Of a stretch of DNA of 8,048 bases, positions 1-8,048 are shown one piece after another (position 1 is the stretch's first letter; every line of letters starts with the position of its first letter). The stretch comes from a virus (Duplodnaviria; Heunggongvirae; Uroviricota; Caudoviricetes). A program made the translations under genes and the position numbers. The notes under the pieces were generated by a model, which saw only the letters and a list, made by a program, of their open reading frames with translations, had not been told where the DNA came from and searched no databases. The stretch lies in the IMG/VR virus record IMGVR_UViG_2802429244_000008, positions 1 to 8,048 of that record, one strand, 5' to 3'.

Positions 1-33
1 GTCAGTGCATAACACAATCTCGCCTTACTACTA

Positions 34-108
<75 letters not shown>

Positions 109-111
109 ATA

Positions 112-187
<76 letters not shown>

Positions 188-249
188 ACTGGTTCCTCAA
201 GAGAAATAAAAATGACCGCGCTTTACATCCCCTTCGGAACCGAAGACGG

Positions 250-277
250 ATATTAATAATGCCGGTTCTTTTTTCAA
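250..277 (-). promoter_or_regulatory. Candidate sigma70 promoter for the tRNA pair
   Basis: On the minus strand: TTGAAA (272-277), 16-bp spacer, TAATAT (250-255), about 55 nt upstream of the tRNA-Thr 5-prime end. Sequence match only. Confidence 0.3.
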
Positions 278-385
278 TAGAAAACCATGTCAATATTCGT
301 AAATATACGTATGTGTTTTTGTTATTTCTGAATTTTAGAAAAAAACAACATGCGCATTTAACGTACTGCACCACTTTTCGGACAC

Positions 386-411
386 AAAAAAACCCGCCTG
401 GCGACGGGTTT
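386..411 (-). terminator. Rho-independent terminator ending the restriction-modification operon
   Basis: Minus strand reads AAACCCG-tcgccagg-CGGGTTT followed by a T run (complement of A7 at 386-392). It lies about 130 nt downstream of the S-subunit stop codon and upstream of the tRNA promoter candidate. Confidence 0.6.
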
Positions 412-541
412 AAGCTGTGTGGCGAAGTGACCACTCTTAACAGAGTATCCAGATTTTTACGATTGTAAACTGCTTTTCATGCATCGTAACGCGATAATCT
501 GACCGCTCTCCCCTGCCTGGCAAGGAAGTATGATGTTTCTG

Positions 542-1609
542 CTAATCGATTTTTTCAGATGTAACATGCCTGTACGCTGCCAGTTTTTTATCAGCGTACT
601 GGACGACATCTTTGATGACGAGTTTCTGCATGACTGAAATAAGGTTATGCATATAACAAAAGTCGGGTAACTTGTTTTTTACTGGCAACCAGATAACATC
701 ATTTTTGATTTTTTTATTGCTAACACTATTACCCCAAGAGTATTTATGTGAAATAGATTTATAAATACATGTAATTAGCCCCAAATGAGTAAACATTGTT
801 CTACCATCTTCGTTATTAACATAAAGTCGTAAATTATGACTGTCGTTTGAAAAAAAGTCTCTTTCCTGATAAGTTACAACGAATGTCTTACCACCAATAA
901 AAATACAGTTCCCTTTCTCCAAGAGAGAAGAATCATAGGATATATAAGTACTGACAGAGTTATTCTCACGACTGGCACAAAGATAAGGAATATCTCCGCT
1001 GTTTTCTGTGATATCTCTGGACAATATGTTTCTCGTATTGCACACAGAGAATAATTCAGTAACAGGGAAACCTGAAAATTCAACATCCTTAAAGCGCTCC
1101 AGAATAAGATGATCTTTTTCCGTGAGTTGGTAATCGCTCAGTCCGGCAGCAACCAGGTATGTTTCCAGCTCTTCTATGTGGGTCGCTTCCAGCTCTTCTA
1201 TGTACTTTACCATATAATTATATGCAGGAACATTATTAAACGTAGGTATATTTATCTTTACCTTATTGAGAACATTCTCATTAAAAGAGCTACATCCCCA
1301 ACTAAACGTTGAAAAAGATTTTTTCATCGCTGATATAAGAAAAACAGCAATTCGCGAATTTAACTCTCCATGTCTGAGAGAAAAAATCTTTATTTTATCA
1401 CCTGTAAAATATGCGCTTTCCTGATAGAACATGGTCGCAGTATCCTGCCCAAAGCTAATTGTATTACCAGGGTTGAGATATGTTTTATCTTCATCTATAT
1501 ATCCTTTTATGCCGTTATTGTTACTTCCTCTCGCAACATAAGGATAGTTGCCATTAAATGTTAATTTATTGGCATTAAATTTCTTTTTAGGTGTCTGAAT
1601 ACTGAACAA
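542..1609 (-). CDS. Restriction-modification specificity subunit (HsdS/BcgIB-like, two target-recognition domains), 355 aa
   Basis: Size and layout fit an S subunit: two AT-rich variable halves separated by a central helical segment (YIEELEATHIEELETYL), with a more GC-rich conserved C-terminal tail. It sits directly downstream of the nuclease-methyltransferase gene. The start is TTG at 1609 with a weak, poorly spaced SD; there is no in-frame ATG nearby. Stop is TAG at 542-544. Confidence 0.65.
   Translation of the reverse strand: MFSIQTPKKKFNANKLTFNGNYPYVARGSNNNGIKGYIDEDKTYLNPGNTISFGQDTATMFYQESAYFTGDKIKIFSLRHGELNSRIAVFLISAMKKSFSTFSWGCSSFNENVLNKVKINIPTFNNVPAYNYMVKYIEELEATHIEELETYLVAAGLSDYQLTEKDHLILERFKDVEFSGFPVTELFSVCNTRNILSRDITENSGDIPYLCASRENNSVSTYISYDSSLLEKGNCIFIGGKTFVVTYQERDFFSNDSHNLRLYVNNEDGRTMFTHLGLITCIYKSISHKYSWGNSVSNKKIKNDVIWLPVKNKLPDFCYMHNLISVMQKLVIKDVVQYADKKLAAYRHVTSEKID
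1163..1203 (-). repeat. Imperfect 24-bp tandem duplication in the central spacer of the S subunit
   Basis: ttccagctcttctatgt occurs at 1163-1179 and again at 1187-1203 (17/17 identical, 24-bp period). It encodes IEELEATH / IEELETYL between the two target-recognition domains. Confidence 0.85.
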
Positions 1610-1683
1610 TCTTCCGATTGTATATTCTTCCCATTTACCACCAGATTTAATAAACTCCCGCTCAAGCTCTGCAAGACGGGAGT

Positions 1684-3816
1684 TTACCGCTTTTTTTCTG
1701 ACGCATCACGCCCCTGAAGAAGTTTTGACACTTCCCACGCAAGATAGTCCGCAACGGTCTTTTTAAAATCCTCCAGCGTCGGTCGGGTATCCACGGGCTT
1801 TGTCTGATTCCAGTCGTCCCCCCGGAGTGGATCTATCACATCCTCAAAATATTCATCTTCCGTAAATATACTGAGGCGGCTTCTGCCAAAATGCACCAAA
1901 TCAACAACTTCCTGATAGCGTTCTCTTGCACGATCCACATCCACAAGGTTATTTCGTGCCTTTTTCCGGTTCGTGCGGACATAACCATCATTCGAAAAGT
2001 CGATAAACTTCACCGGATGTTTTGAATTGTGCGGCAGTTTCACCTGGAATACATAAACATATGTCTGGACACTTGATTTACCAATAAACAAATCAGCAGG
2101 CATTTTTATACTGGCCAGTAGCGTATTCTCCTGAAGTATTTTCTGGTTGTATTCCTTCGCCTTACCTGAACCTGCGGACCCCTGAATAATCACCGCGGCA
2201 TACCCCCCTTTCATCATTGAAAGAGCCTTCTGCACGAAGATCATACCATTACCTTTCGCTGAATATGGCGGGTTCAGCACGAATGCAGTAGCCGGAAATT
2301 TCTCTCCCGATTTACCAAAACCATATCTGCCGTCAAAATCGGCCAGTGAGTCTTTGTTCAGGATGTTGGCGCTGCCATCGCCCATCAGGATCATGTTAAG
2401 AATCGCCAGCATGTAAATACTGGATAACACCTCAAGGCCAAGTAGCTGTTCAGCCTTAATTTGCGCCTCTTTCAGTCTGAGCTCATCCGGTGAGTTAATG
2501 TTCTCTCTGGCATCAATAAGCATCTCATTCATTGCAGCCACCAGCAACCCGGCAGAGCCCGTGGCAAAATCCCACACATACGAATCCCGGTTAACTCTGG
2601 CGAGTCTGGCCAGCAATGTAGCCACATAAGGTGGTGTCAGAACAACATCGTTCAGCTTATCCTGAGTAAACCCTAACCAGCGGTACATCTCATTAAACAG
2701 CTTTCCGGTAAAATCGGTCGTCAGTCCGATTTTGTAGTATTCCTCCAGGTCATCAACAACTTTAATAAATACCCGTTTTAACTGACTTTCACCATCGACA
2801 GGTTTATTAATATTTTCAGTCCACAGCGTATTCTGCAGAGTACGAAGGATCATATCCTTTTTGGTTTCCGGGACACCCTTTATCGTAAGAAAATTCTTAA
2901 CTTTTCTGAAAATAATATCGCCATCACGTTCCCCTTCTTCCGTTGAAGATACAAGCTCGCTTTTATCCAATGGGGTAAGTTTTCCGGGAATACCCAGAGT
3001 GGCAATAACCGTGGCTACAACAAGATAAACCCGATCACTTTCGCCAAGCCCCTTTTCATCCTGATAAATATCGTTGTTCAGACGGGAAAGTCGAGTGTCT
3101 ATCTCTTCCTCTTTGCTGGCCTTAATTTTTTCCAGTTCCTCAGGCGGCAGATTAAGGTGCTTTATCTTGTCGATAAATCCGTCAACATTTTTATCCGCAA
3201 GGAACGACAGATCAGTGTATTCACCAACCTTTTGTCCGGCCCCTAAATTATTCTTTGATACATGCCACACGCCAATTTCATGATGAAGTTCTCCTGTATC
3301 ATCATCGCACCAGCCTGTCATACCGATCGCTATAATATCTGAGTAGTTGGTAAACTGGAGAAGTGCGTTGGCATAATGGACTGCGCCATTAACCGCATAT
3401 CCATTAATGTTTTTAAAGTTCCATTCTTTTCTGGAATCTTTATTCTCGATGATACCGTTACTACCAAGCCGGATAAGCCTGTCCTTATAGCCTTTGTATT
3501 CGATAAGAACAGGGTACTGCCTGCCGTATTTGTCCTGAATAAGGAGTTTTACATCGGGACGGTTACCACCTGCGCCGCCATTTTTCGAAAAATAGGCGTC
3601 CAGGGCGTTATCTATCTCGCTGTTAAGTGGTGCCTGCTCCAGCCTGTAATCAAGCCCGTAAGATTTAAGCCATGAGTTCGCGAGGTCGGAAATTTGCGGC
3701 TCAACCGATTTTACCGTCTTTCTGGATTTACTGGTCGCTGGTCGCTGGTCGCTGGTCGCTGGTCGCTGGTCGCTGGTCGCTGGTCGCTGGTCGCTGGTCT
3801 GGCAGCATAGGATCAT
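1684..3816 (-). CDS. Bifunctional restriction endonuclease / N6-adenine DNA methyltransferase (BcgIA-like Type IIB/IIG enzyme), 710 aa
   Basis: C-terminal half carries gamma-class amino-methyltransferase motifs: VLTPPYVATLL, motif I DFATGSAG, motif IV NPPY. N-terminal region has a PD-(D/E)xK-like signature (RPD...VLIEYK). Residues 6-28 are the translated heptanucleotide repeat (TSDQRPA x3). An alternative ATG at 3806-3808 has the better SD (AAGGA, 7-nt spacing) but is out of frame at the present repeat number. Stop is TAA at 1684-1686. Confidence 0.8.
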   Translation of the reverse strand: MILCCQTSDQRPATSDQRPATSDQRPATSKSRKTVKSVEPQISDLANSWLKSYGLDYRLEQAPLNSEIDNALDAYFSKNGGAGGNRPDVKLLIQDKYGRQYPVLIEYKGYKDRLIRLGSNGIIENKDSRKEWNFKNINGYAVNGAVHYANALLQFTNYSDIIAIGMTGWCDDDTGELHHEIGVWHVSKNNLGAGQKVGEYTDLSFLADKNVDGFIDKIKHLNLPPEELEKIKASKEEEIDTRLSRLNNDIYQDEKGLGESDRVYLVVATVIATLGIPGKLTPLDKSELVSSTEEGERDGDIIFRKVKNFLTIKGVPETKKDMILRTLQNTLWTENINKPVDGESQLKRVFIKVVDDLEEYYKIGLTTDFTGKLFNEMYRWLGFTQDKLNDVVLTPPYVATLLARLARVNRDSYVWDFATGSAGLLVAAMNEMLIDARENINSPDELRLKEAQIKAEQLLGLEVLSSIYMLAILNMILMGDGSANILNKDSLADFDGRYGFGKSGEKFPATAFVLNPPYSAKGNGMIFVQKALSMMKGGYAAVIIQGSAGSGKAKEYNQKILQENTLLASIKMPADLFIGKSSVQTYVYVFQVKLPHNSKHPVKFIDFSNDGYVRTNRKKARNNLVDVDRARERYQEVVDLVHFGRSRLSIFTEDEYFEDVIDPLRGDDWNQTKPVDTRPTLEDFKKTVADYLAWEVSKLLQGRDASEKKR
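3731..3799 (-). repeat. Heptanucleotide simple-sequence repeat, 9 perfect copies (TGGTCGC on + strand, GCGACCA on coding strand) plus partial flanking units
   Basis: Perfect units start at 3732, 3739, 3746, 3753, 3760, 3767, 3774, 3781 and 3788 (63 bp), followed by the partial unit tggtc. The tract lies inside the 5-prime coding region of the nuclease-methyltransferase gene. Unit length is not a multiple of 3. Confidence 0.95.
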
Positions 3817-3836
3817 CCTTTTTCGAAAATCAATGC

Positions 3837-3845
3837 TTTTTTTTT
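3837..3845. repeat. Homopolymeric T9/A9 tract in the promoter region of the restriction-modification gene
   Basis: Nine consecutive T on the + strand (A9 on the coding strand), about 30-40 nt upstream of the candidate start codons. Confidence 0.9.
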
Positions 3846-3971
3846 GGAAAGTACTTAAAAATTATCGTGCTGGCTGAATCAATAACCAGCAAAGGGTATT
3901 AAGTGTGGGTGCGTTGAGGATGCCTGACACATCAGAGATGGCGGGAGATTACTTCCCCCGCCTGGTCACTC

Positions 3972-4127
3972 TTACTCTCCAGATTCGTAGTCTACGAAAA
4001 CAGCGACCTCCGTCTGGCCGGTTCGGATTCGTACCTCGCAGAGGTCTTTCCTCGTTACCAGTGCCGTCACTATGACGGTTAAACAGATGACGATCAGGGC
4101 GATTAACATCGCCTTTTGCTGCTTCAT
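3972..4127 (-). CDS. hok: Hok/Gef-family type I toxin (51 aa small membrane peptide)
   Basis: Translation MKQQKAMLIALIVICLTVIVTALVTRKDLCEVRIRTGQTEVAVFVDYESGE is, from memory, near-identical to E. coli HokD/RelF and Gef: a single transmembrane helix followed by the conserved RKDLCEV...TEVAVF..YES tail. Confidence 0.85.
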   Translation of the reverse strand: MKQQKAMLIALIVICLTVIVTALVTRKDLCEVRIRTGQTEVAVFVDYESGE

Positions 4128-4184
4128 AGCCTGCTTCTCCTTGCCTTTCGGCACGTAAGAGGCTAACCTGATGTTGTCATGCAT
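3972..4184 (-). CDS. mok: mok-like reading frame, an in-frame N-terminal extension of hok (70 aa)
   Basis: ATG at 4182-4184 is preceded by GAGG with about 6-nt spacing. It extends the hok frame by 19 codons, as recalled for mokC/hokC. Confidence 0.55.
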   Translation of the reverse strand: MHDNIRLASYVPKGKEKQAMKQQKAMLIALIVICLTVIVTALVTRKDLCEVRIRTGQTEVAVFVDYESGE

Positions 4185-4245
4185 AGGGAGCCTCAGATTA
4201 ATGTTAAGCGTCTTGCCGGACGCATAATGTTAACTGGGGCTTTTC
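4176..4245 (+). ncRNA. sok: Candidate Sok-like antisense RNA; boundaries approximate
   Basis: On the + strand, TTGCCT (4141-4146), 17-bp spacer, TAACCT (4164-4169) would start a transcript near 4176 that is antisense to the mok start codon and SD. A GC hairpin GCGTC-ttgccg-GACGC lies at 4218-4233. No clean terminator was identified. Confidence 0.3.
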
Positions 4246-4301
4246 TCTATCTGCCTTTTGGTGTTCATGCCTGAGACAGATAGCCTCAAGCACCCGCAAC
4301 A

Positions 4302-4329
4302 ATTCTACAAAAAATCATCTCAATTTCAA
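4302..4329 (-). promoter_or_regulatory. Candidate sigma70 promoter just downstream of Q (hok mRNA promoter and/or a pR-prime-like late promoter)
   Basis: On the minus strand: TTGAAA (4324-4329), 16-bp spacer, TAGAAT (4302-4307). It begins 3 nt after the Q stop codon. Confidence 0.35.
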
Positions 4330-4331
4330 TT

Positions 4332-4742
4332 TTACTGTATTTCTGCAACCGGCCTTCCAGATGAGCCGCGCCCAACATATCTGTCCATTTCCAGTCTGAT
4401 ATCAAGCATCATCAACATCCCATCAACTATCCCTTCAGCCTTTTGCAACAAACGACCAACCCAGCAATCCGAACGACCATGCTTTCGTGCCAGTGCCATG
4501 AACGTCATTCCTCTTACGTAATAATCCACCAGCAAATCATGCAAATCACTGTTATTCTTTTTCAGGCGAGCCATGCATCCACAAATGATCATCGCATCAT
4601 CATCACAACATTGCGGACGTGATTTAACCTTCGAAGGAATAAGCCCCTTGAATCCAGCAGCAATGGATGACCATGTAACATCCTCGTGGTTATTTGCCAC
4701 CCACGCCCCCCAACGCTCAAGAACCATCTGAATATCACGCAT
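4332..4742 (-). CDS. Lambdoid late-gene antiterminator Q (QuuD-like family), 136 aa
   Basis: N-terminal sequence [73 protein letters not shown] matches my recollection of E. coli cryptic-prophage Q homologues. It sits between the replication genes and the cargo region, the canonical Q position. Its ATG overlaps the stop of the upstream ORF (TGATG). Confidence 0.8.
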
Positions 4743-4999
4743 CAGCGCAGTACCTCCTGCACCAGTTTTTCAAACTTACCAACTTTGGTTTCCAGCTCTG
4801 CCACACAATCCACCAGCTCATCCACTGCTTTTTGTGCACGATGTTTCGCCTGCATCAGTTCCCTGAGCGCTGGCACCATATCCCGACGAATGGCATCTTT
4901 TGTTACACCTGTTTTTTCCAGTTGTTCCGCCTGTCGCAACATTTCCTGTGCCTGTTTACGTAGTTGTTCAGGGGTAAAAGTCATTGTCTGGTTGTTCAA
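4742..4999 (-). CDS. Hypothetical small helical protein (85 aa), translationally coupled to the helicase
   Basis: TTG at 4997-4999 overlaps the helicase stop (TTGA) and is preceded by GGAG with 8-nt spacing. An ATG at 4982-4984 lacks an SD. Predicted product is charged and largely alpha-helical, with no family recognised. Confidence 0.45.
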
Positions 5000-6387
5000 A
5001 AGAAACGCTCCATCTTACTGCTGTCAGTTCTTTTATTGCTGTATCTGCGCGGCTGGGGCTGCTGCATTGGGGTGGAAAGAATCTGTGCGCTTTCCTGATC
5101 CACAGGCAGAAAATGTCCGTTATAAAAACGCCGGTAAATCGTTCCCAGAGAACCGTTACGTTGTTTCGTGATATTGATTTCTGCGATGCCCCTAGCCTGC
5201 GTATCCGGGTTGTACACTTCATCCCTGTAAAGCATTAGAATGATGTCTGCATCCGCCTCTATTTCTCCGGAATTTTTCAGGTCTGAGTTCATGGGACGTT
5301 TATTGGGTCTGGACTCCACACCGCGGGAGAGCTGGCTCAGCGCAATCAACGGAAAACCACCGGATTTTGCCAGGCCTTTAAGCCCCTTTGAGATTTCACC
5401 CACGGCAAGGTCATGACGCCCCGTGGTTCGGGTTTTTATCAGCCCGAGATAATCAACCACCACCAGCGCCGTTTCCGGATATTTAATCAGGTGGTGTTTC
5501 GTTGTTGCGCATATCTCATCAATGGTCAGGTTCGCCTGGTCCACCATCCAGATATTGCGACCGGTCATCCGTCCCACCCCTTGTGAGAAACGCGCCCAGT
5601 CTTCGTCTTCAAAGTGAGCGACAGATTTCAGACGTGATACCGGCATTCCTCCAGCCGCAGATACCATGCGCTCACCAATCTGGATGTTCGCCATTTCCAT
5701 TGTGAACAGAAGAACACCATGCCCCTGCTCAGTCACCTTGTCGATGATATCCAGCGCCAGTTCGGTTTTGCCCATTGACGGACGAGCCGCAATAAATACC
5801 AGGTCGCCAGGCTCCATGCCGCCTGTTTTTGCGTCCAGTTCATCAATGCCGGTCATCAGTGTCCTGGATTTCTCCAGTCCCTGATTCCGGCATTCAACAC
5901 GCTCAACCACTTCCGGAAGCACATCATCAATATGTACCGGCTGAATAACGCCCTTTTCCGTCGACAATGAGGCCATCATGTTCTGTGCATCCTTCAGGGC
6001 ATCTTCAGCTGCTTCACAGGTATGCGCATCACGTAATTTCTGCAGCGCCTCATTCAGTGTTTTTTCTGCATCACGCAATGCGGCATTGCGCCGCAGCGCT
6101 GCAACATAGTGCTCCAGTGACGACTTCACCCAGGTTTTGCGCCCGGTATCAGTAATCACCGGGGCAAGTTCCGGCATCTCATTGCACAGCAGCACAGGAT
6201 CAATCACACCTGAAACACGGGCCTGTCTGCAGATGCCTGTGTAGATATCCCGATACGCTCGTACAGAAAAAACGTCCGCCGGTAGTGTGGCCAGAATATC
6301 CATCACTTCATGATCTGCCCCTCGCAGAAAAAACGCGCCAATGACAGCGCCTTCCAGGTCATCGTTACGCCAGACAGGAGAAGTCAT
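4996..6387 (-). CDS. DnaB-family replicative DNA helicase (phage type), 463 aa
   Basis: Walker A in the DnaB context AARPSMGKTELALD, a DnaB-like N-terminal domain and a RecA-like C-terminal domain. Its start ATG overlaps the loader stop (ATGA at 6384-6387). Confidence 0.9.
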   Translation of the reverse strand: MTSPVWRNDDLEGAVIGAFFLRGADHEVMDILATLPADVFSVRAYRDIYTGICRQARVSGVIDPVLLCNEMPELAPVITDTGRKTWVKSSLEHYVAALRRNAALRDAEKTLNEALQKLRDAHTCEAAEDALKDAQNMMASLSTEKGVIQPVHIDDVLPEVVERVECRNQGLEKSRTLMTGIDELDAKTGGMEPGDLVFIAARPSMGKTELALDIIDKVTEQGHGVLLFTMEMANIQIGERMVSAAGGMPVSRLKSVAHFEDEDWARFSQGVGRMTGRNIWMVDQANLTIDEICATTKHHLIKYPETALVVVDYLGLIKTRTTGRHDLAVGEISKGLKGLAKSGGFPLIALSQLSRGVESRPNKRPMNSDLKNSGEIEADADIILMLYRDEVYNPDTQARGIAEINITKQRNGSLGTIYRRFYNGHFLPVDQESAQILSTPMQQPQPRRYSNKRTDSSKMERFF

Positions 6388-7262
6388 GCTGCCACACCTC
6401 TGATACGAGAACGATAGCTGGGCCAGTTAAACGACAACCAGTTGCGTCCCCCGTCTGTGATCCTGTCGGCAATGCGGGGGCTGATGAATGCCCACAACTC
6501 TTCCGGTGAAAGGTTGCTGATCAGGATGGTGGGCAGGATGCTTTCGTACCGGGCATTGATAATTTCCTGCAAAATAGCCATTTCAGCCGCGCTGCCAAAC
6601 TGAACGCCGACTTCGTCGATGATCAGCAAATCCATTGACGCATAATGCTCAATAACTTCATCCGCTGTTTTTTCGCTGTCATTTCGCCAGCAGTTTTTCA
6701 CAGCACGGGTAAGGCGCATCACATCAGTAATCTCCACACTAGCCAGATGGTTACGGATGATGTGTTTTGCCATAGCCACAGCCAGATGATTTTTTCCGGT
6801 ACCACAACTGCCTGTCAGAACAAGACTGGTACCGTTAGCCAGAACATCCTCCCAGCTCTCCGCATAGCGGCGGCAGGCAGCAAGATTTCTGGCTGCATCA
6901 GAGTTAATCTCCTGATAGTTTTCAAACTCACAGTCGCGAAACCTACAGGCAACACCAGCATTCTCAATCAGCACATCAGCTTTCATTGCAACCAGAGTCC
7001 GATGTGTCACATCCATTTCATCCACCAGACACTCCGGACAGCGGGAAATTTTTGAGACAGCGCCCCCCTGCCGATCATCCCACACCAGTATATGCGTACG
7101 ATATTTACCGTGTTTTTCGCAGCATCCAACCCCTTCAGATTCCCGACAGGCACGGTAAGGCCATGGCTTTTCGCCATTCTGAGCAAATGCAATCTCTGCC
7201 CGTAACTCATCCATTCGCGCCTGTAGTCTTGTTTGTTTCTCACGTTGGTCAATCGTCATCAT
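6384..7262 (-). CDS. DnaC/IstB-like AAA+ helicase loader, about 292 aa
   Basis: Walker A LTGSCGTGKNHLA and Walker B LLIIDEVG. Preferred start is ATG at 7260-7262, preceded by GAGGTGA with 5-nt spacing; the ORF track's GTG at 7271 is the alternative. Confidence 0.85.
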   Translation of the reverse strand: MMTIDQREKQTRLQARMDELRAEIAFAQNGEKPWPYRACRESEGVGCCEKHGKYRTHILVWDDRQGGAVSKISRCPECLVDEMDVTHRTLVAMKADVLIENAGVACRFRDCEFENYQEINSDAARNLAACRRYAESWEDVLANGTSLVLTGSCGTGKNHLAVAMAKHIIRNHLASVEITDVMRLTRAVKNCWRNDSEKTADEVIEHYASMDLLIIDEVGVQFGSAAEMAILQEIINARYESILPTILISNLSPEELWAFISPRIADRITDGGRNWLSFNWPSYRSRIRGVAA

Positions 7263-7272
7263 CGCTGTCACC

Positions 7273-8048
7273 TCAGAATGTCAATTTGTTACTGGATTTA
7301 CCGAATTTGTCAGACATGGCTCCCAGGCCAGCCAGGACATCGACCTGTCGCTGTCGCCCACCTCCGTGAGCGGCTGGCTGTTGCCAGGTATCATCAAAAT
7401 GACGATCGGGGCCAAAGAACGTCGCTGCCTGCTTCACGAACTGTGTGCCGGTATTTCCTGTAGCACGTACCCAGGCGGCATACCGCTTCACGCCATCAAG
7501 CATGCTCTCCGGTTTTATTCCCTCCCTGATACGTGCTTTCCAGGCTTTGAAGGCTGCTGACTTGGAATTGCCACCAGCACGTTTGGGATATTCCTGCCAT
7601 GCCTGTTCAAATTCCGGTGAATATTCCAGTCGGGCAGAACGCGCTGGTGCAGACGCGTCAGCGGATGCGCCAATAGTTGATTCATTGACTGGTTCTTTGA
7701 CTGGTTCAAAAGAGTGACTGGTTCTGGGTGAATCTCCTGCACTACCCCCTGGTGCAACTCTTACACCACCTGGTGAATTTGCTGCACTAGGTAGTGAATT
7801 ATTTGCACTACCACCTGGTGAATCTTTTGCACCATCAAGACGAAGAAGATAAATATTGCTCGAGTTCCCTTTTTCACCTTTCCGGGAAACTTTTTTTACC
7901 AGTCCGGATTCACAAAGAGCCGTAATATGATTCATCACAGAACGTTTGCTAATCTCGCACTGATCAGCAATATGCTGATAGCTGGGCCAGCACTCGCCCT
8001 GATCGCTGGCATTATCAGCCAGCTTAATCAGAACCAGTTTTCGCAACG
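7273..8048 (-). CDS. Phage replication initiator / replisome organiser (lambda O-like), 5-prime partial
   Basis: N-terminal HTH region (ADNASDQGECWPSYQHIADQCEISKRSVMNHITALCESGLV), a low-complexity Pro/Gly/Ser linker that contains the DNA iterons, and a C-terminal domain. The reading frame runs to the window edge, so the true start is probably outside. Stop is TGA at 7273-7275. Confidence 0.75.
   Translation of the reverse strand, partial: LRKLVLIKLADNASDQGECWPSYQHIADQCEISKRSVMNHITALCESGLVKKVSRKGEKGNSSNIYLLRLDGAKDSPGGSANNSLPSAANSPGGVRVAPGGSAGDSPRTSHSFEPVKEPVNESTIGASADASAPARSARLEYSPEFEQAWQEYPKRAGGNSKSAAFKAWKARIREGIKPESMLDGVKRYAAWVRATGNTGTQFVKQAATFFGPDRHFDDTWQQPAAHGGGRQRQVDVLAGLGAMSDKFGKSSNKLTF
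7686..7823. repeat. Iteron-like direct repeats inside the O-like gene (candidate phage replication origin)
   Basis: Set A: TGACTGGTTC three times (7686, 7698, 7715). Set B: four copies of roughly TGCACTACCNCCTGGTGAAT at about 22-bp spacing (7738-7757, 7764-7778, 7783-7799, 7804-7823), with internal dyad CACC.GGTG. Confidence 0.5.

Follow-up and report, generated by a model that had tools for sequence, protein, structure and literature searches.

The DNA analysed here comprises positions 1 to 8,048 of the virus record IMGVR_UViG_2802429244_000008 (the window) and corresponds to the whole 8048-bp contig PTSP01000084.1 of the short-read draft assembly GCA_002965905.1. It carries a restriction-modification (RM) module of two genes, A and S, which is cargo of a lambda-like (lambdoid) prophage of an Escherichia strain and lies between the Q/hok-sok genes and the tRNA genes. 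As judged from their sequences, A, an open reading frame (ORF) for 710 aa as assembled (1684-3816), and S, called as an ORF for 355 aa (542-1609), very probably form a two-gene, BcgI-like Type IIB system. Two features of this module go beyond an earlier, sequence-only reading of the same DNA, and their novelty is provisional. The first is a heptanucleotide tract at the start of A, which probably acts as an on/off switch of the enzyme gene, and the second is a frameshift signal at the A/S junction, where we consider it likely, with slightly less confidence, that part of the ribosomes change frame and fuse the two products. The combination of Type IIB module, repeat switch and frameshift fusion is, in our opinion, the best explanation of the locus as a whole, and we hold it with good confidence. 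All coordinates are positions in the window, and all genes and features lie on the minus strand unless stated otherwise.

The A/S junction

The A gene ends at a TAA codon (1684-1686) and the S ORF, as called from a TTG, begins 74 nt after it. The sequence-only reading had given this distance correctly, but the interval is no spacer, being open and amino-acid-conserved in the S frame. The S frame is -1 relative to A, is open from five codons before a slippery heptamer and reads KKAVNSRLAELEREFIKSGGKWEEYTIGRLF... The heptamer, A AAA AAG in the A frame (1691-1697), is found two codons before the A stop in the context GA[A AAA AAG] CGG TAA, and the stop lies within conserved codons of the -1 frame, GTA AAC TCC (V-N-S). 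Inside the apparent spacer (1637-1690) the S frame encodes a linker peptide, AVNSRLAELEREFIKSGG, with no ATG, GTG or TTG, and no such canonical start was found in the window S frame ahead of the TTG at 1609. This TTG falls itself inside the conserved N-terminal motif KWEEYTIGRLF (1604-1636), with which the first target-recognition domain (TRD1) of S begins. Directly 3' of the slippery site a hairpin is present (1649-1688), with core arms ACTCCCG (1677-1683) and CGGGAGT (1654-1660). It can be extended to 12 bp and has a minimum free energy of -20.2 kcal/mol (z -4.2), none of 200 shuffled sequences being as stable. Both arms persist in the relatives' loci L001, L012, L017 and L018, where the changes are U-G wobbles, and the linker is conserved at the amino acid level in Salmonella and Escherichia relatives bearing different TRD1s. 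The window's own junction type is represented by only 5-6 variants, in which the hairpin changes are all wobble. Most E. coli copies have a second junction type, with a different A C-terminus, the sequence G GGA AAG TAA, a hairpin and the -1 peptide GKVNSPLSDKLRSVEWGEFRIGDLF.

Purine tracts resembling a Shine-Dalgarno sequence (AGGGG, GGAG, AGGTG) were also observed 5-13 nt upstream of A AAA AAG, at 1698-1720 in the window, and they occur in all four variants of this junction type (window, L012, L017 and L018) despite differing A-frame residues.

The junction was then compared over 87 unique sequences, obtained from the earlier loci and from 80 further ones of species-representative genomes of many phyla (A 63-72% identical). 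In 75 of these junctions the A frame carries an X XXA AAR heptamer at 0-1 codon from its stop, and the -1 frame is open for at least 32 codons in 83. All three elements, heptamer, open -1 frame and TRD1 motif, are present in 72 junctions, of which 46, the window among them, contain no canonical start between heptamer and motif. When A ends in x-Gly-Lys-stop, the glycine codon is GGA in 62/62 loci, compared to 30% elsewhere in the same genes, and the base before it is G in 62/62, compared to 16% elsewhere, with eight different amino acids as the preceding residue. The family-wide hairpin (12 bp, loop of 15 nt) begins 5 nt past the heptamer and is paired in 95.8% of the cells of the alignment, against 34-48% when the partner columns are slid. 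Five of its pairs show double compensatory changes, and none of 500 shuffles attains these values of pairing and compensation. The family also includes single-chain members of 840-1190 aa, in which A is fused in frame to one or two Methylase_S domains, and these natural A-S chains carry the same linkers in frame: ...LGKISPS..WGEF... in P0136, and ...ALSPRLRELEKDFKQNGGEW... in P0138, P0192 and P0218, to be compared with AVNSRLAELEREFIKSGGKW in the window. A minority of the junctions (L100, L103, L104, L107, L085, L069 and L116) have no heptamer at two codons or less from the A stop; in several of these, L103 and L107 for example, the A frame is about 12 codons longer and a GGGAAAA-like sequence is found upstream.

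The junction thus presents a conserved signal which combines the features by which -1 frameshifting is recognised, namely a heptamer conserved at the nucleotide level, a covarying hairpin downstream and a conserved -1 extension, and from these we infer programmed -1 ribosomal frameshifting at the A/S junction. Some ribosomes would slip at A AAA AAG to the -1 frame and yield an A-S fusion of about 1091 aa, and the remaining ribosomes would stop and give free A (710 aa as assembled), so that one fusion and one free A would supply an A2S stoichiometry from a single mRNA. The arrangement resembles that of dnaX, with its A AAA AAG, downstream hairpin and upstream SD-like (Shine-Dalgarno-like) element: the window shares this heptamer exactly, and its own hairpin follows within a few nucleotides, with SD-like GGAG/AGGGG sequences 5-13 nt upstream. 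In E. coli, efficient shifting is known for X XXA AAG motifs (PMC4066793). It differs in its outcome, the dnaX shift truncating the product, whereas here the shift would add the whole of S, as in the fusions of insertion sequence elements and phage tail chaperones. Transcriptional slippage at the A-run was considered as another way to change frame and is unlikely for the GGGAAAR junctions, which form the majority and have only A3-A4.

The main competitor of frameshifting is a separate synthesis of S, from a near-cognate start (ATT at 1649-1651 in the window; ATA or ATG elsewhere) used by termination-reinitiation, with the heptamer, the stop and the hairpin serving in coupling or mRNA stability. 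BcgI and BsaXI were indeed purified as separate A/RM and B/S chains, and the EcoKI hsdM and hsdS genes are described as translationally coupled with a 1-nt overlap (PMC3510504). In the present family, however, the conserved protein sequence of the linker starts right at the heptamer, and the natural fusions contain this linker in frame. Several observations weigh against frameshifting on the side of the start codons. The Prokaryotic Genome Annotation Pipeline (PGAP) gives S an ATT start in the source assembly (369 aa) and, for Providencia, a start at ATA, and 26 of the 72 junctions have a possible start codon (10 ATG, 15 TTG and 1 GTG), the ten ATG being placed either as an overlapping A-ATG-A (five) or at +20 (five). 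Separate synthesis would nevertheless have to operate in the 46 junctions devoid of any canonical start. It also leaves unexplained the invariant G and GGA after eight different residues, as well as the A AAA AAG of the alternative junction type, both being exact X XXA AAG heptamers, and the hairpin 5 nt past the heptamer has the spacing of a -1 frameshift stimulator. A further reservation concerns this hairpin, a part of whose pairing could reflect protein constraint since both arms lie in conserved codons. On balance we consider that a separately initiated S is rather improbable, and we retain programmed -1 frameshifting as the likely reading of the junction. In the literature, for which our coverage is incomplete, no frameshift was found for any RM system, and neither the frameshift surveys nor a recoding review included RM or hsd genes.

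The heptanucleotide tract and the dual start codons of A

The 5' end of the A gene contains a perfect tandem repeat, (CGACCAG) x 9.9, which occupies codons 7-29 (TSDQRPA x3; 3731-3799) and was detected by Tandem Repeats Finder with 100% matches. It is preceded by a start region (3806-3820) with two ATG codons in different frames, ATG1 (3816-3814), which has no suitably spaced Shine-Dalgarno sequence, and ATG2 (3808-3806), located 7 nt after AAGGA (3820-3816). Because seven is not a multiple of three, the tract gives an identical heptapeptide whichever frame is read and is free of stops; directly past it, a TAA closes the two frames other than that of the enzyme, after at most 1 and 8 codons. 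Between the tract and about residue 85 (NRPD, 85-88), the window has no ATG, GTG or TTG in frame. An internal start that would rescue the out-of-frame state was accordingly rejected; the internal start chosen by PGAP would moreover delete Glu39 (E39) of the nuclease domain.

The length and the frame of the tract vary among strains. The 29 expanded alleles have 8-99 units (median 64) between identical flanks, and the enzyme ORF is in frame with ATG1 in 12 of them, with ATG2 in 5 and with neither ATG in the other 12. Three unexpanded alleles, with 1-2 units, are all in the ATG2 frame and read MLPDQRPAT..., which looks, from the sequences, like the ancestral N-terminus. Outside Enterobacteriaceae, the homologues of Providencia, Neisseria and other genera begin M..K.QSVEPN and are repeat-free, from which the tract is taken as a lineage-specific expansion. 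Differences in tract length were found even among strains with an identical A protein (WP_001178557.1): a trio of O111:H8 strains has 55, 82 and 57 units, UCPROB-001 and UCPROB-002 have 75 and 82, and the German faecal isolates G1/2, G6/7 and G8 have 90, 82 and 98, one for each frame state. The window and most relatives have a tract without imperfections, and interruptions were seen in five of the long alleles.

These data bring together what characterises phase variation, a perfect repeat in the 5' coding region, a unit length not divisible by three, and a copy number and frame that differ between close strains, and on these grounds the tract is probably an on/off phase-variation switch of the enzyme gene. 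Slipped-strand mispairing would add or remove units and so shift the enzyme ORF among three states, the ATG2 frame with a good Shine-Dalgarno sequence, the ATG1 frame with a poor one, and neither frame, with early termination. The layout is that of the repeat-controlled RM genes, such as Type III mod, Type I hsdM/hsdS and the Campylobacter Type IIG gene Cj0031, which have likewise a 5' coding repeat of a unit not divisible by three, a copy number variable among strains and early termination in the wrong frames (PMC5909438, PMC7383803, PMC4889913). The present case differs from them in its heptamer unit, its size of up to ~99 units (700 bp), its host, E. coli or a close relative, its location in a temperate phage and its Type IIB enzyme. 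The main text of the survey of Type I repeats mentions neither E. coli nor prophages. No description of the heptamer tract in any rotation, of its peptide or of YXWGXW was found in the literature, the coverage of which was incomplete.

The tract could instead be a neutral runaway microsatellite in a dispensable prophage gene, inactivated by chance, and in the window possibly a collapsed artefact. Several points weigh against a switch and are in agreement with this alternative. The 12/12/5 distribution of frame states is random-like, which is compatible with a switch and also with neutral drift. Lengths of up to 99 units go far beyond what a switch needs and far exceed those of classical phase-variable genes, and the mutation is not extremely fast since the 82-unit allele recurs in several unrelated strains. 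The module is present in only 30 of 5426 complete E. coli genomes, besides one sequenced phage, PhiR12_3 from ECOR13, and several relatives have an S gene that is split or marked as a pseudogene. A dispensable gene is, however, difficult to reconcile with the selection on A: the dN/dS (ratio of nonsynonymous to synonymous substitution rates) against relatives at a dS of ~1.2 is 0.05-0.07, the N-terminal domain included, and the core ORF of 675-677 codons is intact in every locus compared, out-of-frame alleles included. By this sequence comparison the A gene is under strong purifying selection. Neutral expansion would also have to account for the position of the tract, exactly between the start codons and the conserved N-terminus, for its openness in three frames followed by immediate stops in both wrong ones, for the two start codons in different frames ahead of it, for the differences in length and phase between near-identical strains, and for a layout shared with the known repeat-controlled RM genes (references above). 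Some reservations concern the start codons and the data themselves. ATG1, poorly placed with respect to a Shine-Dalgarno sequence, is ATA in L003 and ACG in L016. The window being a short-read contig, its 9.9 copies and its ATG1-in-frame state may result from collapse in assembly; the tract breaks short-read assemblies, as seen from relatives' contigs that begin or end inside it, and copy numbers from such assemblies are unreliable, and the frame calls from long reads are exposed to indel errors in tracts of 400-700 bp. We consider the neutral alternative unlikely, and a phase-variation switch of the enzyme gene remains the reading we prefer.

On the plus strand the tract reads as GCTGGTCG repeated, so that prophages of relatives contain up to ~99 tandem Chi-like octamers over ~700 bp; this sequence agrees in 7 of 8 bases with the E. 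coli Chi sequence, GCTGGTGG. The tract has also disturbed the annotation of the locus. RefSeq never places it in a gene and begins A at an internal codon (653 aa), with loss of the invariant E39. A plus-strand ORF at 3672-3902, with WSLVAGR repeats through the tract, is a mirror-image artefact, and its counterparts in relatives (L001 9099-9770; L019-L037) are annotated as 'YXWGXW repeat-containing protein' or 'hypothetical protein', and as 'EmrB/QacA transporter' in PhiR12_3. The gene assignment given here corrects a systematic mis-annotation which consists of the naming as HsdM and S, a start past a catalytic residue and a spurious protein on the opposite strand.

Assignment of A and S to Type IIB systems

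The A subunit, as delimited by profiles and by an AlphaFold2 (AF2) model with a mean predicted local distance difference test score of 87.9, consists of the repeat-encoded N-terminal extension, a PD-(D/E)xK nuclease domain (~residues 35-225; 3142-3714), a helical connector, a gamma-class N6-methyladenine (m6A) methyltransferase and a C-terminal helix. The motifs on which the sequence-only reading was built were located at NRPD 85-88, IEYK 105-108, DFATGSAG 416-423 and NPPY 515-518. The nuclease catalytic quartet is formed by E39 (3700-3702), D88 (3553-3555), E106 (3499-3501) and K108 (3493-3495), and the methyltransferase catalytic core (2263-2571) has motif I, DFATGSAG, at 2548-2571 and motif IV, NPPY, at 2263-2274. 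Across 42 aligned homologues of full length (30-72% identity), P87, D88, E106 and K108, as well as the aspartate and glycine of motif I and the NPP of motif IV, are conserved at 90% or more, and the four residues of the quartet are invariant in an alignment of the N-terminal domain (26 sequences, 23-68% identity). The PADLOC model REase_MTase_IIG (PDLC03616, 721 positions) matched residues 35-701 of A with an E value of 8e-227, and a second PADLOC model, of 637 positions, with 1.6e-44. Pfam N6_Mtase was detected (E 1.4e-18), and VRR_NUC gave 21.4 bits on residues 59-115, below its cut-off of 23.8. The score of 33.6 bits with NCBIfam TIGR00497 (hsdM) is far under the cut-off of 242.75 and indicates that A is not a canonical HsdM. 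In a Foldseek search with the A model, the top full-length match in the Protein Data Bank (PDB) was BsaXI (E 2.6e-15, ~672 columns), HsdM structures matched just the C-terminal part (residues 330-567), and the best matches of the nuclease-domain fold were the nuclease domains of HsdR, BpuSI and DrdV. Searches of the PDB chains by sequence, with A, S and a profile of the N-terminal domain, returned only methyltransferases of the HsdM type and, for the methyltransferase core, a weak match with BsaXI; there were zero matches for S or for the nuclease domain, whose assignment rests for this reason on fold and motif. By the PADLOC profile, the conserved quartet and the fold, the union of a nuclease and a gamma-class adenine methyltransferase in one 710-aa chain, as first proposed from the letters of the DNA, is upheld.

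The S body (542-1636, stop codon at 542-544) contains TRD1, a central conserved region, TRD2, which starts approximately at FSGFPVTELF (1049-1078), and a C-terminal conserved helix (572-652). It matched Pfam Methylase_S in two stretches (E 2.9e-27) and PADLOC Specificity_II (341 positions; E 5e-22), in line with the earlier description of the 355-aa protein as a specificity subunit with two target-recognition domains. The profile matches of A and S lie far outside what chance would give. A comparison with the S genes of L001-L037 showed that S is a mosaic in which TRD1 and TRD2 are exchanged independently. Both domains are common to the window and L001, L003 and L005; a large E. coli group has only TRD2 in common with it, L004 only TRD1, and L006, L012 and L016 neither of them. 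The recognition site is, as the sequence-only reading also held, not derivable from the sequence. The central conserved region contains a tandem repeat of 8 aa (24 nt) in two copies, IEELEATH-IEELETY (1157-1201). Copies of IEELEA(A/T)H number two in most loci, three in L003, L017 (Salmonella) and L030, and four in L004, and the S alleles of L006, L012 and L016 have GLADSRTR x2 at the same site. In EcoR124I/II, the TAEL repeat in S varies in copy number and alters the length of the recognition-site spacer.

Type IIB systems of the RM+S kind have a nuclease and a gamma-class methyltransferase in one chain, an adjacent S with two TRDs and no translocase, and this is what was found. Type I systems have a separate HsdR with a superfamily 2 (SF2) ATPase motor and a nuclease, and no HsdR/Res or ATP translocase gene is present in the window, where the sole helicase-like ORF is the phage DnaB, nor any HsdR gene in the relatives' loci, where the neighbours are hok, Q, tRNAs, esterase and lysis genes. 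The proposal of a BcgI A+B arrangement, not of a three-gene Type I system, is borne out by the nuclease fused to M, the S encoded next to it and the lack of HsdR. The profile checks that the sequence-only reading had called for were run; the large protein matches a nuclease-bearing REase-MTase model and the 355-aa protein has TRDs, and since neither of the two outcomes named beforehand as speaking against that reading appeared, it is supported. If the module works as BcgI and BsaXI do, its active unit would be A2S, with a requirement for S-adenosylmethionine (AdoMet) and Mg2+. S with its two TRDs would read a bipartite DNA site, and the module would methylate the DNA of its host and, where DNA is unmodified, cut on both sides of the site. 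This cleavage mode and this stoichiometry are taken over from BcgI, which is A2B (PMC3592470), and from BsaXI, a (RM)2S heterotrimer (PMC11997821).

Among known systems, the two-gene A2B prototype BcgI is similar in having the nuclease and the gamma-class m6A methyltransferase in one subunit, a separate HsdS-like subunit with two TRDs, and no ATPase or translocase. The PADLOC models of 637 and 341 positions, which match A and S, agree with the lengths of BcgI A and B. The likeness to BcgI was judged by profile models, and A fits better the 721-position model, which places it in a different and much more widespread subfamily. No description of a repeat tract or of a frameshift junction was found for BcgI. 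BsaXI, known from cryo-electron microscopy (8W0P, 8W2P and 8W2Q), has the same R-connector-M order, the E...D...ExK quartet and a separate S with two TRDs. It differs by a sequence identity of only 16%, by an RM subunit of 916 aa with a 'knob' and a 'paddle', both missing from A, and by a nuclease domain with no detectable sequence relationship to that of A. The single C-terminal helix of A (H652-673 in the model) is typical of the EcoKI-like RM+S group (PMC11997821). Single-chain Type IIB/IIG enzymes (AloI-like, BpuSI and DrdV) are what the predicted 1091-aa frameshift product would resemble, with the difference that the fusion in the window needs a change of frame and that free A would be made too. 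Type I systems (the HsdM2S core; EcoKI, EcoR124I) have a methyltransferase core (HsdM) and an S subunit (HsdS) homologous to those of the module, and likewise the reassortment of TRDs and a variable short repeat in S; in contrast, the module has no HsdR or ATP motor and its nuclease is fused to the N-terminus of M.

It is very unlikely that the pair is only a Type I-like M+S methyltransferase, which modifies without restricting and whose N-terminal domain is inactive or non-nucleolytic: the naming of all relatives by PGAP/RefSeq ('HsdM family methyltransferase' and 'restriction endonuclease subunit S'), the HsdM structures as nearest neighbours of the methyltransferase core by sequence, N6_Mtase as the sole Pfam match above threshold in A (see the VRR_NUC score above) and the 653-aa PGAP gene models beginning downstream of E39 agree with it, the short models being however explained by the repeat tract and the out-of-frame alleles, and it is opposed by a family-wide invariant E/D/E-x-K quartet, a PD-(D/E)xK fold with HsdR, BpuSI and DrdV nucleases as top matches, the full-length PADLOC Type IIG REase-MTase match and a dN/dS of ~0.05 that extends over the N-terminal domain, and by the equivalent quartet of BsaXI (E73, D90, E105 and K107), which is reported as indispensable for cleavage and as conserved among the Type IIB enzymes (PMC11997821).

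Genomic setting, spread and significance

In the order of transcription, the window contains a replication-initiator-like ORF (7273-8046), a DnaC-like loader (6384-7271), the DnaB helicase (4996-6387), an ORF of 85 aa (4742-4999), the antiterminator Q (4332-4742; PF06530, E 1.5e-51), a hok/mok/sok locus, A, S, tRNA-Thr(tgt) (112-187) and tRNA-Gly(tcc) (34-108), all on the minus strand. The positions of Q and of the two tRNA genes confirm the placement of the module between them that had been proposed. The hok/mok/sok-type toxin-antitoxin locus (3972-4295), which directly follows Q and precedes the RM genes, is complete, with a Hok ORF at 3972-4184 (Pfam HOK_GEF, E 1e-22) and Rfam sok at 4122-4295 (RF01794, 117 bits). 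The slot is constant in the relatives that were fetched, with Q, hok, A, S and sometimes tRNAs, followed by esterase and lysis genes. In the O111:H8 relatives (L019-L021, 726-975) the same slot holds Ile, Arg and Arg tRNAs, and a remnant 'site-specific DNA-methyltransferase' pseudogene stands between S and the tRNAs. The nearest relative of the window is found in an 'Escherichia sp. MOD1' isolate, with 95% protein identity, and the phage backbone is ~93% identical to E. coli prophages.

A terminator-like hairpin downstream of S (390-411), with a 9-bp stem of which 5 pairs are GC, followed by the T-run TTTTTGTG, is likely the end of the module transcript. A second terminator-like hairpin, between hok and the A start (3868-3891), with an equivalent in E. 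coli relatives, is probably the 3' end of the hok mRNA, which a promoter-like site at 4329-4302 and this hairpin (3891-3868) would delimit. Past it, only ~50 nt remain in which the RM genes could have a promoter of their own, and a promoter scan revealed no convincing one between hok and the A start, which weighs against our explanation of the module; the promoter-like sites are in total as many as expected from shuffled sequences.

From a set of 1.84 billion representative proteins, 1830 relatives of A were retrieved. In the loci L041-L120, A is 63-72% identical across Firmicutes, Bacteroidota, Proteobacteria, Campylobacterota, Spirochaetota, Actinomycetota and a metagenome-assembled genome of Candidatus Campbellbacteria, and some copies of the family are on plasmids or adjoin mobilisation genes (L039, L040). 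This conservation in very distant hosts, together with the link of some copies to plasmids and mobilisation genes, points to a wide horizontal spread. The RefSeq name of A is 'HsdM family class I SAM-dependent methyltransferase', and a note in the PhiR12_3 record calls it 'BcgI alpha chain-like'. Over this range, a plausible general picture, which we hold with middling confidence, is that a widespread Type IIB family may set its A2S composition by -1 frameshifting and that the Escherichia/Salmonella prophage lineage has in addition gained a phase-variation tract.

If the frameshift is real, it would be, to our knowledge, the first recoding event described in a restriction-modification system, and RM enzymes would join the short list of cellular genes with programmed frameshifting. 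It would give a simple answer to the question of how a 2:1 subunit ratio is set, and a frame relationship of one nucleotide would link the two-subunit and the single-chain architectures of Type IIB enzymes. It may also, as a matter of speculation, explain the poor modelling of some annotated Type IIB S subunits (PMC11997821). The tract locus constitutes in any case a highly variable tandem-repeat marker. The module occupies the cargo slot that holds the Shiga toxin genes in related phages, and if the tract switches, a temperate phage would carry there a stochastically switching restriction barrier in E. coli. This would represent a repeat-driven, phase-variable restriction in E. coli and its relatives, a group with few reports of such switches, and the lysogens would vary stochastically in the DNA that they accept and in their methylome.

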